In this document: positions 42,427-49,334 of the stretch, in pieces | Layout: every line of letters starts with the position of its first letter | Position numbering within the stretch: the first letter of the stretch is position 1 | Source: Escherichia phage naam | Sequence record: MN850630.1 | Direction: 5' to 3' (one strand) | DNA: 64,000 bases | Position numbers and translations under genes: made by a program | The notes under the pieces: model-generated | What the model was told of the DNA's origin: nothing | What the model saw: the letters and a program-made list of their open reading frames with translations, nothing else | Database searches by the model: none

Positions 42427-43193
42427 ATATGATTTGCACGATCCTCAATAAGATTGAGTGCGATTTGACGACCCAACCCGGAACGAACGACATCGTCTGG
42501 ACTATCAAAGCTGATCATTCCAACCTCAGGATCTGGATGACGAGTAAAGAAATCCGTCACCCATGCAAGGCCAGATTTACCAGGGATGTCACGTTGGCTA
42601 TTATCACCCATAATTACAAGGGTGGCTTGATCAGAGATCCTTGTGATAATTGACAACATTTCTTCAGGGTTAGTTTGCTGTGCCTCGTCAATCAGGACAA
42701 AGCATCGCTCATCGAAACTACGACCACGAATGCTTTCAACTTCACAAATCTCGATACGACTGTTCTGACCGTCTCCCAGCATTGCGGCAAAAGCACCTTT
42801 GCCAACACGACGACAAATCGTGTCCATCATGCTTCGAAGATAGGGCCACAGTTTCTGCATTGCATTTCCTGGTTTAAATCCTGAAGTCTTTCCTGTCTGG
42901 ACGTAAGGACGTGCAACAATGATCTTATCAATCTCGTTCTTACGCAGAAGATCACCTGCATATGCAGATGCCATAAATGTCTTACCGGATCCAAACACAC
43001 CGTTTACAATAATAATCTTACGTGACCCTAGATAATCAAGATACTTTTGCTGCTTCTTATTCATTGGTCGGAGAGCTGGAGCGGTGTGCTCTCTTTCGTC
43101 AGCAAATTTCTCAGCAGCCTTACGCAGGCGATCAGATTTGCGAGCCTCTCTAGCTTCATCACGCATGCGTTTTGTTTCTTTAGCTCGACCCAT
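42405..43193 (-). CDS. phoH: PhoH-like ATPase
   Basis: Walker A GVFGSGKT; LIDEAQQ Walker B region; 262 aa. Confidence 0.8.
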   Translation of the reverse strand: MGRAKETKRMRDEAREARKSDRLRKAAEKFADEREHTAPALRPMNKKQQKYLDYLGSRKIIIVNGVFGSGKTFMASAYAGDLLRKNEIDKIIVARPYVQTGKTSGFKPGNAMQKLWPYLRSMMDTICRRVGKGAFAAMLGDGQNSRIEICEVESIRGRSFDERCFVLIDEAQQTNPEEMLSIITRISDQATLVIMGDNSQRDIPGKSGLAWVTDFFTRHPDPEVGMISFDSPDDVVRSGLGRQIALNLIEDRANHIWTPVSE

Positions 43194-43231
43194 GTTGGGA
43201 CTCCTTTCAGATTGAGATGTGCCAAGTACTT

Positions 43232-43582
43232 TTACTGCAACAGTTTTTCAATAGCCGCTTCCATGCTGCTTGCAACAGCCTGAACTCGGATATTCATCTC
43301 TTCTTGGTGGATCAGCTCCTTAAGCTCTTTAATGGTAAATTCTTTAGAGAAACCTTCCACCATAATCTTGTGCAAGGCTTCTTGCGTGTCTACTTGCAAG
43401 AACTTTTCCAGTTTGTTGGCAGAGGCTTCTAAATCAGCCCGAATACGAGGGTCATCTGTGCGATTCAGCATTAGGCGTAAGCCATCAAGATTAGTAGAAA
43501 TAGCATCTGCATGTTGAGTAACTAACCGTGGCAAAATGAGATCTACAAACTTATTAGCCAAATCGATACGTTCTTGTGTCAC
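43232..43582 (-). CDS. hypothetical protein
   Basis: 116 aa, GTG start. Confidence 0.5.
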   Translation of the reverse strand: MTQERIDLANKFVDLILPRLVTQHADAISTNLDGLRLMLNRTDDPRIRADLEASANKLEKFLQVDTQEALHKIMVEGFSKEFTIKELKELIHQEEMNIRVQAVASSMEAAIEKLLQ

Positions 43583-43692
43583 TGTTGCACCCCCTCTTCA
43601 TCTTCATGATGTTTCTTTTCACGCTTGTGTTTTTTCTTAAGCTCAAGCGCAATCTCTTTCTTGTACGCCTTCTTCAAGGCTTTTTTAGCCAT
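43579..43692 (-). CDS. small Lys-rich protein (37 aa)
   Basis: GGAGGTG RBS; stop overlaps next start. Confidence 0.35.
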   Translation of the reverse strand: MAKKALKKAYKKEIALELKKKHKREKKHHEDEEGVQQ

Positions 43693-43754
43693 TTGGCACC
43701 TCCTCTGCTTTCATTACGACAATTATAACCGACTTAACAAAGCTTTGTCAACGA

Positions 43755-44228
43755 TTAGTCAACCTGAACCCAACCATCTGCTACCTTTTTAAACATTCTT
43801 TGGTTATCACTGCCTCTAAAGGGTTTTTTGGTGGGGTTATCTTTTTCGTACTTACCGTCCATAATGTAATCAACACTATCTTTAATGTAATCGGGGACTT
43901 CTTCAAACAAATACCCTGTGTACACCCAGATAGTTTTTGTGTTGCCGAAGTGTTCACGGATAGCGCGAATGATCGAGTACATACCATCAATATTGTAAGG
44001 CGCTAAAGGTTCGCCACCGCATAATGTAACGCCAGTAATGTGTTTCGGCTCTATAGAGTGAAGTATACTCTCAATAGTGTCATTTGTTAACGGTTCCCCT
44101 TTAGCTGGTGACCAAACACTTTTGTTTTGGCAACCGACGCAGTGATGTGGGCAACCAGAACAGAACACCGTTGTCCTAATGCCTGGGCCGTCAACCATGC
44201 TACACTCTATAATATTAACAACATTCAT
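43755..44228 (-). CDS. nrdG: anaerobic ribonucleotide reductase activating protein (radical SAM)
   Basis: DGPGIRTTVFCSGCPHHCVGCQN cysteine motif; near nrdD. Confidence 0.85.
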   Translation of the reverse strand: MNVVNIIECSMVDGPGIRTTVFCSGCPHHCVGCQNKSVWSPAKGEPLTNDTIESILHSIEPKHITGVTLCGGEPLAPYNIDGMYSIIRAIREHFGNTKTIWVYTGYLFEEVPDYIKDSVDYIMDGKYEKDNPTKKPFRGSDNQRMFKKVADGWVQVD

Positions 44229-44461
44229 TCCTTATCCTCTTTTAGGTAAGGATATTCAGGCCCACAATAAGCTCTATCCAAGAAAACAGCTTCTTCCCCT
44301 CTGGAATCAGTAGATCTATAATACCCATCACCATGGTAACTAACGAACCAGTGGCACCCATCATCGCTTTCTACTGTTGTGGCTCTGTCCGAATGAAAGA
44401 TAATTTCGTAATCCTTACCGAATGTAAACCATCTGTTAGCTTTTACACAGACACCTATCAT
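44225..44461 (-). CDS. hypothetical protein
   Basis: 78 aa, ATGA overlap with nrdG. Confidence 0.5.
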   Translation of the reverse strand: MIGVCVKANRWFTFGKDYEIIFHSDRATTVESDDGCHWFVSYHGDGYYRSTDSRGEEAVFLDRAYCGPEYPYLKEDKE

Positions 44462-44612
44462 AAGGAACCTCTCTTCTGTGATGTGCTTCTATTCAAGATA
44501 AACCTATAAAAGTCCATTTGATGAAGCCGTATAACTTTTTATACTTACGCTTCAGTGCTAACAATTTTATCTTGATTTTCTTGATAGATTTCCGCATTTC
44601 GACCCCTTATGC

Positions 44613-44729
44613 TTATAAGTACTCCGCATCGCATTCAGGGCAATGCCAAATAAAATCGTCCAGTGCCTTGCACCAACGAAGATTGCAACGACAACCACAC
44701 TTGCAAATTTTATAAATACCTGATGACAT
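44613..44729 (-). CDS. small Cys-rich peptide (38 aa, zinc-ribbon-like)
   Basis: GGAGGTG RBS; CKCGCRC ... CPEC cysteines. Confidence 0.4.
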   Translation of the reverse strand: MSSGIYKICKCGCRCNLRWCKALDDFIWHCPECDAEYL

Positions 44730-44781
44730 ACTGCACCTCCTTAGTTAATAGCATGTTTAAGATATGCATATCTTTCTACAA

Positions 44782-45714
44782 TCATTTACCACAAATCTTC
44801 TTGTATACCTCTTCTACCGTGTCAAACACTTCAGGCCTGTAGTAGAAAAACTCAGTGCTACCGTCAAATTTTACAGGAAAGTTTATTTTATACTTGCTCA
44901 AGGCCTTATGCACAGATTTTTCTAAATCTACCATGTTTTGAGTTGATCCGCTCCATGTTTTTACTACGTGAAGAGTGTGGACACCTGCGCCAGATTTACG
45001 AGCACTGTTAAGCACCTCATTTTTCCTCCTGTGCATTTTAACGCATACACCGATTTTCATAAGTGTTGGCACTTCTAAGTCATCAACCATAATGTAGAGT
45101 TTACCGTACTCATGAGATAAGAATCCATTTTGTGCGCATTTACAGCAGCCACGACCACTTTTTAGGTTATTAGGTTTAGCAGACCACTTATACCCACAAA
45201 TTTTGCACCTACATTGCACTTTTGTGTTATCATTGGCAATTTTCTCTAATATTTCTATGTCTGGGTTGGCTTTGTGGATAATTGCAGCGTGCTCCTTATG
45301 GGTTAACGCTTGACTTTGCCCACGTCTTAAGTCATAGCACTCTGGGCAGCCGTTTCTTTGGTATAAGTGGTTTTCAGGGTATTGTTCAAACACACCGTGT
45401 TCAGGGCAAACAATTTTTACAGGCGTTCTCATGTTCGCATATTTGACTAATGAGTAATCGTACTTGTCCCCATGAACAGCCATAGCCTCTTTTATGAACT
45501 CTTCAGTGTTCTTTTTCGCTGACCCACCACACCTTGGACAACCATGATTCTTGAAAGCATGTGCCACAGGGGTTTGCCAGAACTCACCGTGCTCAGGACA
45601 AATTATACACACAGGTGTCTTGTTGTTTTTATACTCCACTTTGAAGTAATCATATTTGTCACCATGTATAGTCTGAGCTTTTTCTATAAACTCTTCGGTT
45701 GTTAGTCTTCTCAT
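44782..45714 (-). CDS. T5orf172/GIY-YIG-like domain protein with repeated zinc ribbons (homing-endonuclease-like)
   Basis: Three repeats of GDKYDY...CPEHG...GCP.CG; C-terminal KIGV...TEFF resembles T5orf172 domain. Confidence 0.5.
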   Translation of the reverse strand: MRRLTTEEFIEKAQTIHGDKYDYFKVEYKNNKTPVCIICPEHGEFWQTPVAHAFKNHGCPRCGGSAKKNTEEFIKEAMAVHGDKYDYSLVKYANMRTPVKIVCPEHGVFEQYPENHLYQRNGCPECYDLRRGQSQALTHKEHAAIIHKANPDIEILEKIANDNTKVQCRCKICGYKWSAKPNNLKSGRGCCKCAQNGFLSHEYGKLYIMVDDLEVPTLMKIGVCVKMHRRKNEVLNSARKSGAGVHTLHVVKTWSGSTQNMVDLEKSVHKALSKYKINFPVKFDGSTEFFYYRPEVFDTVEEVYKKICGK

Positions 45715-45785
45715 TACCAGACCAGACCCTTCCGCTATTCACTTTATATTGCATACTATAGAAAAGAGGAATAGAAGTCAATAAA

Positions 45786-45817
45786 AACAAAAAAAAAATG
45801 AGAGCATCCTTGCTCTC
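45786..45817 (-). terminator. rho-independent terminator
   Basis: GAGAGCA-aggatg-CTCTC + 10-nt T-tract on minus strand after nrdD. Confidence 0.65.
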
Positions 45818-45828
45818 CACCTCTTTCC

Positions 45829-47967
45829 TTATTTACTCAACGGACAACAGTCTACATTCCCAACATGTTTAACACGTTCGATAACCTCTGCTTGTTTACC
45901 TGTGTTATACGGCCTACTGTTCGGGCTGGAGAGATAGCCAGACACTCTTCGGATCACTGAGATATATTGTTCATCGTGGCATCCGCACGCAGGGCAGCAG
46001 AACCCTTTAGCTGTTGCACTGAACTCACCAGAGAAACCACACTTGAGACATTTATCCACAGGTTGGTTAATACCAAAATACATAATGTGTTTATACCCGA
46101 AGTCAACAAGAGCCTCTAAAGCATCAAGGTTGTTTTTCAGGTTAGGTGTCTCTACGTATCCGATGTTGCCACCGGAGGAGATCATAGCAAAACCTTCCTC
46201 ATACTCCCACTTATCAAAAGGAGAGCTATTGATCCATACTGGCTGATGGAAACTGTTGGTGAGATATTCATGCTCGTGCTTTAACACTTCTGGATATTCA
46301 CGATCCAGACAGGTTGCAGCTTTATAGCATAGACTCTCAGAAGGAGTGCCGTACAAGCTAAATGCTAGTCTACTTTCCTTCTTGTATCGCTCACAAGCAT
46401 CTCTCATGTGCTGAAGGATTCCAAGAGCTAAAGCCTTGTCACCTTCTCTGCCCAAAATCTGACAGGTTTCATACACACCAATGTACCCAATGCTGATGGA
46501 AGCGTACCCGTCATAGAAGAGTTTATCAATACTTTCTTCAGGATCCAGGCGAGCAAGAGCGCCTTCACACCACATGATGGGGTTCTGCCCTGACTTTGTT
46601 CCTTTTAGACGGTTAACCCTTACAAGGTGAGCCTCGTATGCAAGATCCAAGTATTCGTCAAGAACTGCAAAGAAATCAACACCTTCCGTCTTAGCTTTTG
46701 CCGCAATCATTGGCAGGTTAAGGCTAACAACGCCTAAGTTAAATCTGCCAAGGTATTTCTCCTCGCCTGTTTCCAAGTCATTGTATTTGCTAAGAAAACT
46801 CCGGCAACCCATGCTCGTTACTTTGCCATCTGTCGAGCCTGTCACTTTTCTATTTAGTGGTACAGATACGAAGTCAGGATAGATACGTTCTGCACAGCAT
46901 TCCAGAGCTAATCGTTTCAAATCATAGTTAGGATCTCCAGGGTTCATGTTGACACCCTCTTCTAGGAAGAACAGCACTTTAGGGAACACAGGTGTGATCC
47001 GTTCTTCACCAAGACCCATTTTGTGGACTTTCAAGTAATTTTTGGTAATCATTCTACCAAAGACCGAGGTATCCAGTCCTAAACTTAATGTGATGAATGG
47101 AGTTTGCCCGTTGACAGAAGTTAACGTATTGATTTGATAGAGCAAAGTCTGCATGCTGTCAAATACGTCTTTATCTGTCATTTGCATTGCAACAGTCTCA
47201 GCATCTGGCAACCAATGTTCCTGGCAAAATTTAAGGTTCTTCTCATAGGTCGCTTCAGCATACTGTGCCAGATAATGATCAATATGGCTCATAGTCTGAC
47301 CCCCATATTGAGCACTAGCTACTGCACTAGAGATTTGGCTAAGGATTGTTGTTGCAACCCCTATTGACTTAGGCTTACTGACATGGGCGTTACCAATGTT
47401 GAATCCGTTTTCCAACATATCTGGATAATTTACCAAACAACAGTTTGTTAACGGACTGATCAAGTAGTCAAGATCATGCACATGGATGAAGCCTCTATTG
47501 TGCTCTTCTGAGACACGGTCTGGCAGGATCTGTGTTGATGCAAGGTGTTTGCTAAGAATACCTGCAAGCAGGTCGCGATGAGTGTGTACATGATTAGTAG
47601 GCTTATTTGCGTTTTCTTTTGTAAATTCATCACAAGTTCGATCCAAGAAGCCACTAATATCTGCAAGCAGTTTTCCACCTGCCTCTCTGTTATTATCTCT
47701 TGTCTGTCTATACTGGATGTATTCTCTGGCTGCACATTTTAAACCCATATCCATAAGAGCATCTTCAACAAGGATATGGATATTTTTTACAGAGATCGTG
47801 CACTGGTCGGTTGGTAGATTGTTAGCAACAACTTCATTAACCGCGCAGGCGATCCGGTAAGCTTCTTCTTCAGTATGCCCAGACTCAAGTAAGGCGGACT
47901 CTGCCGCCTTGATCACCTTAATTCCGTTATAGAACTCTTCTCTACCGTCCCGTTTTACAACTTTCAC
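45829..47967 (-). CDS. nrdD: anaerobic ribonucleoside-triphosphate reductase
   Basis: 712 aa; C-terminal glycyl-radical motif RVSGYL and Zn-binding CxxC pairs. Confidence 0.85.
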   Translation of the reverse strand: MKVVKRDGREEFYNGIKVIKAAESALLESGHTEEEAYRIACAVNEVVANNLPTDQCTISVKNIHILVEDALMDMGLKCAAREYIQYRQTRDNNREAGGKLLADISGFLDRTCDEFTKENANKPTNHVHTHRDLLAGILSKHLASTQILPDRVSEEHNRGFIHVHDLDYLISPLTNCCLVNYPDMLENGFNIGNAHVSKPKSIGVATTILSQISSAVASAQYGGQTMSHIDHYLAQYAEATYEKNLKFCQEHWLPDAETVAMQMTDKDVFDSMQTLLYQINTLTSVNGQTPFITLSLGLDTSVFGRMITKNYLKVHKMGLGEERITPVFPKVLFFLEEGVNMNPGDPNYDLKRLALECCAERIYPDFVSVPLNRKVTGSTDGKVTSMGCRSFLSKYNDLETGEEKYLGRFNLGVVSLNLPMIAAKAKTEGVDFFAVLDEYLDLAYEAHLVRVNRLKGTKSGQNPIMWCEGALARLDPEESIDKLFYDGYASISIGYIGVYETCQILGREGDKALALGILQHMRDACERYKKESRLAFSLYGTPSESLCYKAATCLDREYPEVLKHEHEYLTNSFHQPVWINSSPFDKWEYEEGFAMISSGGNIGYVETPNLKNNLDALEALVDFGYKHIMYFGINQPVDKCLKCGFSGEFSATAKGFCCPACGCHDEQYISVIRRVSGYLSSPNSRPYNTGKQAEVIERVKHVGNVDCCPLSK

Positions 47968-48242
47968 TTTTTCTCTCCAAAACCATTCTTAACAAAAGAG
48001 ATGAAATCGTCGGCACCGCCTATATGGACACTGTCAAGATCGCTTTCTAAGAAGATCTGCGGCAACGTTCTGGGGACAATTGGACTGCACTTCTCAATAA
48101 GCTCTTCTTTTGTGTAGCCCTCGCCAAGTGTCTTATATACAAAAGGCAGACCTTTGCTGATTGCAAATTCTTTTGCTCTGACACAATGTGGGCAGTTATC
48201 CTTACCGTAAATGATGATGAAAAAAGATTTTTCGCAGCTCAT
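47964..48242 (-). CDS. glutaredoxin/NrdH-like redoxin
   Basis: CPHC active-site motif, 92 aa, between nrdD and nrdB. Confidence 0.7.
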   Translation of the reverse strand: MSCEKSFFIIIYGKDNCPHCVRAKEFAISKGLPFVYKTLGEGYTKEELIEKCSPIVPRTLPQIFLESDLDSVHIGGADDFISFVKNGFGEKK

Positions 48243-48245
48243 ATA

Positions 48246-49334
48246 TTAAAACTCCCAAATTTCTTCTTCAGCGTCGTTAACAGTTGTGTTGACGCGGTAG
48301 TCAGTGTTCGACATTTCTTGGTTCGCCGTCTGTTGTAATGAAGGTTTCATCCACACCTGCATAAACGGTAGCGGGTCCTTTGTTGGCGGCACAAAGTCTT
48401 TGTCGATGTCGTAGTAATCATAAATCGGTGAGCAGTTATAGTCAACCCACTCTTTAAGCAACGGTGAGTTAAGACCTATAATCGCTCTTCCTTCGCTGAA
48501 AATATAGTCACTCCAACCGTACTCTTTGGTTCGTACTTCATCAAGAATCTCTTTTAACTCCCCTTTTATCTCCAGGAAGCTTTTCTCCCATGCGGGATCG
48601 TTAAGCAAGATATCAATGATGGCAAAATCACCTTTCGAATGTAGCATTTCGTCAAGCATGATTTTTTGAACAAGCTGCGCCACCTGAACAAAAATACCCT
48701 GTTCAGCTACTGCGAAAGTGCATGCAAAACTTGCAATAAACTCAATACTTTCTAGAGCTAAAAGTGCAAAAAGCGCTCTAAGAATGCATTTCCGCACAAT
48801 ATCTTCTTCAACACTAGAAGGATCCAGGCGGTATTTTGCACCAATAACCTCAAGCTCTTGCATGTATTTGACAATAACGCCGGATCTGCTCAGAACGTTT
48901 TGGTTTTCCTGAATCTCTTCTATAATCTCACGGGCATTGGGGAGGCATTGTCTAACAATCTCTGAGTAAGTTAGTGCGTGAAGAACTTCAATCTCTGACT
49001 GTTTCATCAATAGAGTGAAAAGCTCACTATTAGTGATGAATGGTGAAAAGAGGCAGATGATCGATCTTGCCGCAACGCTATCAGCCTCCCATTGCCACAT
49101 CAAGGTCTGCACCATCACGTCATAAGTTGACTTTGAGCATGTTACAAAATCTGAAATAGATTGCGACAAATCCACTTCATCCTCTGTCCAATCTTGCTCT
49201 TTTTGTTTTTTGTATAGTTCAAACAGTTGTGGATATTTTTTGTTGATAGAGTCGTACATACCCATTTGCTGTCCCAGAAACAACGGATAGTCACCAGTTT
49301 TATGAGCGGTGTTCTCAGCATTAAATACAGCCAT
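48246..49334 (-). CDS. nrdB: ribonucleotide reductase small subunit
   Basis: About 360 aa downstream of nrdA; ATG 49334 after GAGGT (longest frame overlaps nrdA). Confidence 0.75.
   Translation of the reverse strand: MAVFNAENTAHKTGDYPLFLGQQMGMYDSINKKYPQLFELYKKQKEQDWTEDEVDLSQSISDFVTCSKSTYDVMVQTLMWQWEADSVAARSIICLFSPFITNSELFTLLMKQSEIEVLHALTYSEIVRQCLPNAREIIEEIQENQNVLSRSGVIVKYMQELEVIGAKYRLDPSSVEEDIVRKCILRALFALLALESIEFIASFACTFAVAEQGIFVQVAQLVQKIMLDEMLHSKGDFAIIDILLNDPAWEKSFLEIKGELKEILDEVRTKEYGWSDYIFSEGRAIIGLNSPLLKEWVDYNCSPIYDYYDIDKDFVPPTKDPLPFMQVWMKPSLQQTANQEMSNTDYRVNTTVNDAEEEIWEF

Follow-up and report, generated by a model that had tools for sequence, protein, structure and literature searches.

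The stretch of DNA analysed here, 64 kb in all and called the window below, is part of the genome of a Vequintavirus, a myophage of E. coli that resembles rV5. Its nrd region, 43700-48300, is 99.5% identical to that of phage A51.2 and finds matches in 121 phage records. All genes of this region lie on the minus strand, and the table gives them in transcription order together with the features discussed below. A sequence-only reading of the window had placed a 310-aa gene and a 38-aa Cys-rich ORF between nrdG and nrdD; an ORF check confirmed the coordinates and the minus-strand orientation of both. Two further small ORFs, of 78 and 34 aa, were absent from that reading and separate nrdG from the 38-aa ORF.

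Features of the nrd region of the window, in transcription order
Feature	Position	Strand	Remarks
Glutaredoxin gene	47964-48242	-	first in transcription order
nrdD	45829-47967	-	712 aa
Diverged 3' tract of nrdD ('A-type')	45866..46008	-	143 nt, adjoins cassette
Cassette-specific nrdD end and stop	45829..45865	-	...VKH-VGNVDCCPLSK-stop for rV5 ...VKH-YGSCGC-stop; from alignments
Intrinsic-terminator-like hairpin	45790..45817	-	GAGAGCA-AGGA-TGCTCTC, then T10; from terminator scan
Sigma-70-like promoter match	45753..45781	-	TTGACT-17-TAGTAT, 9/12 consensus; frequency no higher than in shuffled sequence
310-aa endonuclease gene (predicted)	44782-45714	-	between nrdD and 38-aa ORF
Zinc module 1 (predicted), DUF723 type	45529..45705	-	aa 4-62; Cys 36, 39, 59, 62
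Zinc module 2 (predicted), DUF723 type	45337..45513	-	aa 68-126; Cys 100, 103, 123, 126
Zinc module 3 (predicted), CapR/DUF4379 type	45136..45300	-	aa 139-193; Cys 168, 170, 173, 190, 193
T5orf172 (GIY-YIG superfamily) nuclease domain	44794..45105	-	aa 204-307
Cassette-specific spacer	44747..44781	-	35 nt, downstream of endonuclease stop codon
38-aa Cys-rich ORF	44613-44729	-	after 310-aa gene
34-aa ORF	44493-44597	-	between 38-aa and 78-aa ORFs
78-aa ORF	44225-44461	-	PHROG 3249, 'putative minor capsid protein'
nrdG	43755-44228	-	last of the series

Comparison with relatives shows that part of this region is variable. The genome of rV5 aligns to the window at 43700-44746 and again at 45866-48300; between these two blocks lie 67 bp in rV5 and 1119 bp in the window. 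The 1119-bp segment, 44747-45865, which we call the cassette, occurs at full length and at least 98.4% identity in 18 phage records, whereas a probe across the rV5 empty site gives an uninterrupted match in 92. The cassette is therefore present, with exact junctions, in only about 15% of the related rV5-like E. coli phages, and the proposal of a homing-endonuclease-like insert in the nrd operon is upheld by this comparison of nrdG-nrdD regions. What the earlier reading missed is that the insert starts inside nrdD and that the mobile unit comes with a diverged nrdD 3' end. Around the insert, a search for terminal, inverted or direct repeats and for a target-site duplication returned only short, chance-level matches. 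A transposon was therefore rejected; the lack of terminal repeats and of a target-site duplication is what homing, not transposition, leads one to expect. An exact 26-mer of the cassette/nrdD junction had no match among IMG/VR viral contigs.

The distribution of the cassette suggests more than vertical descent alone. In a similarity ranking over 1-25000, cassette-bearing and cassette-free genomes are interleaved, and by this measure the carriers form no apparent clade; A51.2, the best match in the nrd region, lies outside the top 45. The same cassette is also found in different flanking contexts, with two nrdG-side arrangements and with or without a nrdD insertion at 47107/47108. In I29 and CM1, for example, it is 99.6% identical, the 78-aa and 34-aa genes are absent and the nrdG-side stretch is only 82-83% identical. 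Shared descent could nevertheless account in part for the 18 near-identical copies. Across the nrd region, carriers are closer to each other (96-99.5%) than to non-carriers (94-97%), a pattern that would suit an ancestral, immobile resident gene deleted in most Vequintavirus lineages, so that the polymorphism would record gene loss. We regard gene loss as very improbable, as the empty site of rV5 is an intact 60-bp intergenic region with a homologous AGGA hairpin and no deletion scar, and the 92 empty sites hardly differ among themselves. Gene loss is also at odds with the interleaving of carriers over a separate 25-kb region, with the sharply bounded nrdD tract of 68% identity that accompanies the cassette, and with the several unrelated module arrangements found at the same site, both described below.

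A second presence/absence polymorphism lies about 140 bp downstream of the cassette and comprises the 78-aa and 34-aa genes (44225-44608), which are missing in I29, CM1, JEP1 and AlexBoehm, where homology breaks at 44609. We also noted some 19 'Campylobacter phage' records in GenBank (MG0656xx), given C. jejuni as host, that are 97-98% identical to the E. coli Vequintavirus region; this host label looks doubtful.

The cassette consists of a new nrdD C-terminus, a terminator-like hairpin, a promoter-like site, the 310-aa gene and a 35-nt spacer. Homology of nrdD to rV5 by blastn ends at 45866, and homology resumes at 44746, exactly where the 38-aa ORF has its ribosome-binding site. The terminator-like hairpin has a predicted RNA fold of -17.7 kcal/mol (z = -4.8). 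At the corresponding place rV5 has an intergenic hairpin with the same AGGA loop, which makes this stretch of the cassette a divergent counterpart of the resident sequence and not unrelated DNA. A regulatory hairpin at the beginning of the endonuclease gene was considered and rejected, as the fold there is no better than that of shuffled sequence (z = -1.3). The T run at 45790-45799, ten nucleotides long in the window, has 1-4 additional nt in A51.2, CM1 and I29. The two NrdD tails (45829-45865 in the window, L001:1592-1613 in rV5) both end in a Cys pair, DCCPLSK versus SCGC or SCSC, and are otherwise unrelated; this shared pair, together with the overlap of the glutaredoxin gene with the nrdD start, hints at a function for the terminal Cys pair of NrdD.

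The 38-aa ORF is real but does not belong to the insert, of which the earlier reading had made it part. It encodes seven Cys residues, as described (MSSGIYKICKCGCRCNLRWCKALDDFIWHCPECDAEYL), and has a perfect Shine-Dalgarno sequence (AAGGAGGT) 6 nt before its ATG. It lies outside the insert, since rV5 and each of the ten relatives examined have it, whether or not they carry the endonuclease gene. In rV5, where its counterpart is MSKGIYKICKCGCRCNLRWCKALDDFIWHCPECDAEYL (L001:1414-1530), and in AlexBoehm, the ORF is present and the endonuclease gene absent; in I29, CM1, JEP1 and AlexBoehm it directly abuts nrdG. The Cys pattern is kept even in the most divergent copy, that of O157 typing phage 14, and the ORF falls in PHROG 20137, a 38-residue family labelled 'ribonucleotide reductase'. 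Conservation of this kind indicates a resident phage gene of the nrd operon, distinct from the mobile cassette, and its product may act with the anaerobic reductase as a small zinc-ribbon partner. The rV5 annotation misses this ORF and has in its place an overlapping 75-aa frame (gp109).

The 310-aa ORF is present exactly as first described, and its product has four parts: two DUF723 zinc modules, one module of CapR/DUF4379 type and a C-terminal T5orf172 domain. Four Pfam families scored above their curated cut-offs: DUF723 (50.2 bits, cut-off 20.9, in two stretches), CapR (41.0 bits, cut-off 24.2, best stretch residues 157-194), DUF4379 (39.3 bits, cut-off 24.5, best stretch residues 150-195) and T5orf172 (PF10544, GIY-YIG clan; 33.4 bits, cut-off 20, E = 6.5e-8, residues 207-307). 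The match to PF10544 covers model positions 4-100 of 101, and this domain search bears out the T5orf172/GIY-YIG-like region first noticed from the sequence alone. MUG113 reached 20.3 bits, just under its cut-off of 22.3, and PHROG 681 ('endonuclease') matched at 3.8e-65. A sequence search of PDB chains gave no match at E <= 1, and no paralogue of the gene was found elsewhere in the 64-kb window.

The zinc modules had been taken for three tandem GDKYDY...CPEHG...GCPxCG repeats. Two of them are indeed true copies: modules 1 and 2, both DUF723, are 57% identical (E = 7e-26). The third is divergent, being 29% identical to module 2 (E = 5e-4) and lacking GDKYDY and CPEHG, and its matches point to a related zinc finger of the CapR/DUF4379 treble-clef type. 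The Cys ligand columns (CxxC...CxxC or CxC) are invariant or nearly so in 21 homologues, and all three modules are predicted zinc-finger DNA-binding modules of the DUF723, DUF4379 and CapR families. The architecture had been called unusual, a judgement that did not survive comparison with the databases: the same array occurs in more than 7,900 database proteins, many of them with more repeats, and the match to PHROG 681 tells the same story. A published survey describes 229 phage T5orf172 homing endonuclease genes, 87% of which have zinc fingers of the CapR/DUF723/DUF4379 type, often repeated (Barth et al., 2023; PMC10448857, where DUF4379 is spelt DUF4397 in most places). The combination of zinc repeats with T5orf172 is thus common and already published, and the gene is no new kind of element.

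In the nuclease domain, residues Y207, K220, G222, R230, E265, H269 and E288 are invariant in 21 homologues. An AlphaFold model made with these homologues as input has a mean pLDDT of 85.7, and in it the T5orf172 domain is predicted to adopt the GIY-YIG alpha/beta fold. The T5orf172 nuclease Odn (ICP1 gp88) cleaves DNA in vitro, and its E180A mutation abolishes cleavage (Barth et al., 2021; PMC8263062). Alignment with Odn matches the Tyr, the Lys-x-Gly, the Arg (R230) and the Glu (E265, equivalent to Odn E180), so that the Arg and Glu required for catalysis in Odn are retained; the second Tyr of the GIY-YIG motif is a Lys (KIG).

Could the gene encode a domesticated or decaying endonuclease, one that does not cut and serves as a CapR-like DNA-binding regulator or is on its way to loss? 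Module 3 matches the CapR homology domain, and CapR is a satellite protein, a domesticated repressor of the T5orf172 family (10.1101/2020.11.28.402263; PMC10448857). The change from YIG to KIG might be read in the same way, but KIG is also found in Odn, an active nuclease. The copy in Shigella phage CM1 has a one-base insertion in an A run, at the equivalent of about 44921, and the resulting +1 frameshift after residue ~266 truncates the nuclease domain, removing its conserved C-terminal part; this is either gene decay or a homopolymer sequencing error. The other three of the four inspected copies are intact and identical at the protein level, however, and Y207, R230, E265, H269 and E288 are invariant across the 21 homologues. 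Moreover, a patchy distribution with a linked flanking tract is what one usually sees with an element that is still mobile or was so until recently. We therefore consider domestication or decay unlikely, and infer that the gene probably encodes an active, free-standing homing endonuclease.

The intergenic site between nrdD and the 38-aa ORF is a hotspot contested by several alleles. At least five other T5orf172 alleles occupy it in other Vequintaviruses: those of WalterGehring (330 aa; bas51_0186, 'putative homing endonuclease'), nom (321 aa; nom_106, a gene of the WalterGehring type), Mangalyan (386 aa; gp119), JEP1 (311 aa; JEP1_174, equal to the Mangalyan allele minus its first zinc module) and O157 typing phage 14 (386 aa; ECTP14_02315). 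They have three or four zinc modules in differing combinations and orders, their nuclease domains are similar to each other, and their overall amino-acid identity to the 310-aa protein is 44-52%. With the window allele they have zinc modules in common, and the T5orf172 domains are close relatives. These alleles sit after an rV5-type nrdD stop and hairpin, and come without the replaced nrdD end, the T-run terminator and the promoter-like site of the window cassette. Depositors have labelled the A51.2 and I29 copies of the 310-aa gene as T5 ORF172-domain proteins.

A separate insertion affects nrdD itself, which is uninterrupted in the window and split in relatives exactly at 47107/47108. The inserted DNA is about 798 bp, with an HNH endonuclease gene, in WalterGehring and Mangalyan, and about 257 bp in CM1; in JEP1, the annotation divides nrdD into three pieces, two of which are separated by an HNH homing endonuclease gene. 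Depositors annotate the split gene as a joined CDS or as containing a 'phage intron'. An Rfam scan of 43000-49000 (E <= 0.1) and of three related loci with nrdD-splitting insertions matched no family, nor did any intron family reach the gathering threshold, and the intron annotation therefore lacks confirmation here.

The 143-nt tract at the nrdD 3' end, which adjoins the cassette, is 68% identical to rV5, in comparison with about 97% for the rest of the gene; it contains 46 mismatches in 143 nt, as against 56 in 1959 elsewhere in nrdD (Fisher p = 1.6e-29). Its edge is sharp, with the last mismatch at 46003 and the next only at 46063. The codon differences from rV5 comprise 27 synonymous and 7 non-synonymous changes, in a segment whose product includes RRVSGY, the glycyl-radical motif, as well as the second CxxC of the zinc ribbon at the NrdD C-terminus. 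A donor of this tail was sought at two levels: in DNA searches only Vequintavirus records matched, and at the protein level the next best matches were rV5-type tails (81%) and the Seunavirus PVP-SE1 (77%), with no donor among them.

We assigned nrdD tails to classes in 109 records by identity to the window tail. Nineteen are A-type (at least 95% identity), 16 are B-type (80-90%) and 74 are rV5-like C-type (about 70%). All 19 A-type records have a T5orf172 gene at the site, which is this cassette in 18 and a related allele in JEP1. Base-by-base alignment showed that the B-type tail is a mosaic, which starts as A-type at about 46003 and switches to C-type at about 45938, and all eight B-type records checked have an empty site (AlexBoehm, RudolfGeigy, Gotham, EmilHeitz, C2, two bov phages and HeinrichReichert). 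The tail of JEP1 is A-type down to about 45897. The mosaics are thus nested: they share an upstream edge near 46003 and either end at about 45938 (B-type) or about 45897 (JEP1), or continue into the cassette. The idea that the tail type predicts the endonuclease allele in general was rejected, as nom and WalterGehring share a 98%-identical gene and differ in their tails; this WalterGehring-type allele occurs with a C-type tail in WalterGehring and a part A-type tail in nom, and the tail type is therefore not tied to the endonuclease allele generally.

A common upstream edge with variable extents is the expected outcome if a break occurs near that edge and the donor is then copied over variable distances. 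Because 16 records have only the upstream part of the tract, with an empty site in the eight checked, the cleavage site is suggested to lie within that upstream part, and the tract as a whole (45866..46008) is a candidate region for both the target and the immunity of the endonuclease. Short conversion tracts would then leave resistant empty sites, and long ones would transfer the gene. Similar mosaics could also have arisen from one old introgression followed by ordinary crossovers; the diverged tract may then be left over from hitch-hiking and play no part in immunity.

Taken together, these observations make it likely that 44747-45865 and the diverged nrdD tract, 45866-46008, constitute a free-standing homing-endonuclease cassette. 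A plausible mechanism can be drawn from what is known of other free-standing homing endonucleases in phages and from the mosaics in this region. In a mixed infection, the enzyme would cut cassette-free relatives in or near the nrdD 3' end, and repair that copies the cassette-bearing genome would transfer both the cassette and the flanking nrdD polymorphisms. The cassette-bearing genome would escape cutting through the recoding of its own nrdD 3' end, in which about 32% of nucleotides differ and the protein is largely preserved. The cassette would also supply a replacement nrdD stop codon and terminator, and a promoter-like match precedes its own gene.

The same nuclease could in principle act mainly in competition between phages or against parasites, destroying competitor or satellite DNA in the manner of Odn, with self-propagation secondary. 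T5orf172 nucleases can be used in this way (PMC8263062), and the gene has its own promoter-like match (9/12 consensus, a class of match no more frequent here than in shuffled sequence). Set against this are its classic homing-endonuclease position beside a conserved gene of an essential pathway, the allelic competitors at the same site, the linked recoded flank, and zinc modules without a RepA_N-like or satellite-derived domain; besides, cutting the nrdD of competitors is mechanistically the same as homing. We judge a primary role in competition to be distinctly unlikely. Odn itself binds DNA through a RepA_N domain and has the replication origin of a satellite as its target, unlike the present protein with its three zinc modules, and in contrast to Odn the 310-aa gene looks like a selfish homing element.

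Free-standing homing genes of other families provide a useful comparison. In T-even phages, GIY-YIG and HNH endonucleases of the Seg and Mob groups, such as SegG and MobE, are encoded by free-standing genes between conserved genes, often in nrd operons. Their cleavage site is a distant one, in an adjacent conserved gene; markers that flank it undergo co-conversion, and polymorphism in sequence makes the host genome immune. These behaviours have been shown experimentally for the T4 enzymes. The window cassette resembles them as a free-standing gene between conserved genes, and target distance, co-conversion and immunity would be of the same kind. It differs in belonging to the T5orf172 subfamily, with KIG for YIG, and in its DNA-binding modules.

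A further likeness is to zinc-finger T5orf172 genes, of which Vibrio phage ICP1 has examples, with N-terminal zinc-finger repeats and a C-terminal T5orf172 domain (PMC10448857). A third of such genes lie near ribonucleotide reductase genes (33%), and they are found at genetic-exchange boundaries (Barth et al., 2023; PMC10448857). The gene described here shares this ribonucleotide reductase neighbourhood, the shuffled DNA-binding repeats and the exchange-boundary location. It is unlike the published cases in its Vequintavirus lineage and its site between nrdD and the 38-aa ORF; and the allele of the window, as known from sequence, exchanges the nrdD C-terminus for another and adds a terminator together with a promoter-like site. 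Of the new details, the most useful are this replaced C-terminus, the sharply bounded recoded nrdD tract and the nested partial tracts.

A more specific proposal, which we offer tentatively and hold to be possible rather than probable, is that target, nrdD patch, escape products and re-targeting together form a 'cut-and-patch' unit. The target may be the zinc-ribbon/glycyl-radical segment of nrdD, about 45938-46008, in cassette-free alleles, and the recoded last ~60 nrdD codons with the stop and terminator may serve as an immunity patch that the element carries with it. Escape may then explain the 16 records that have just the upstream portion of the tract, their target having been converted while the gene was not acquired, and the alleles with reshuffled zinc modules, at least five in number, may record repeated re-targeting in an arms race. 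If this is true, the genus would be a natural dataset for the DNA-recognition code of DUF723 and CapR modules.

For annotation, these results mean that the 310-aa gene, a 'hypothetical protein' in most records seen, should be described as a T5orf172-type homing endonuclease, and that the 38-aa gene should stand apart as a conserved gene of the nrd operon. With about 120 near-identical genomes available, the locus is therefore a convenient system for mapping T5orf172 targets and the specificity of individual modules for DNA. More broadly, the cassette is an example of a free-standing endonuclease gene that drags along part of an essential gene in recoded form. The nested partial tracts seen where the endonuclease gene is absent point to a target region, and such partial conversion tracts may create resistant empty sites.
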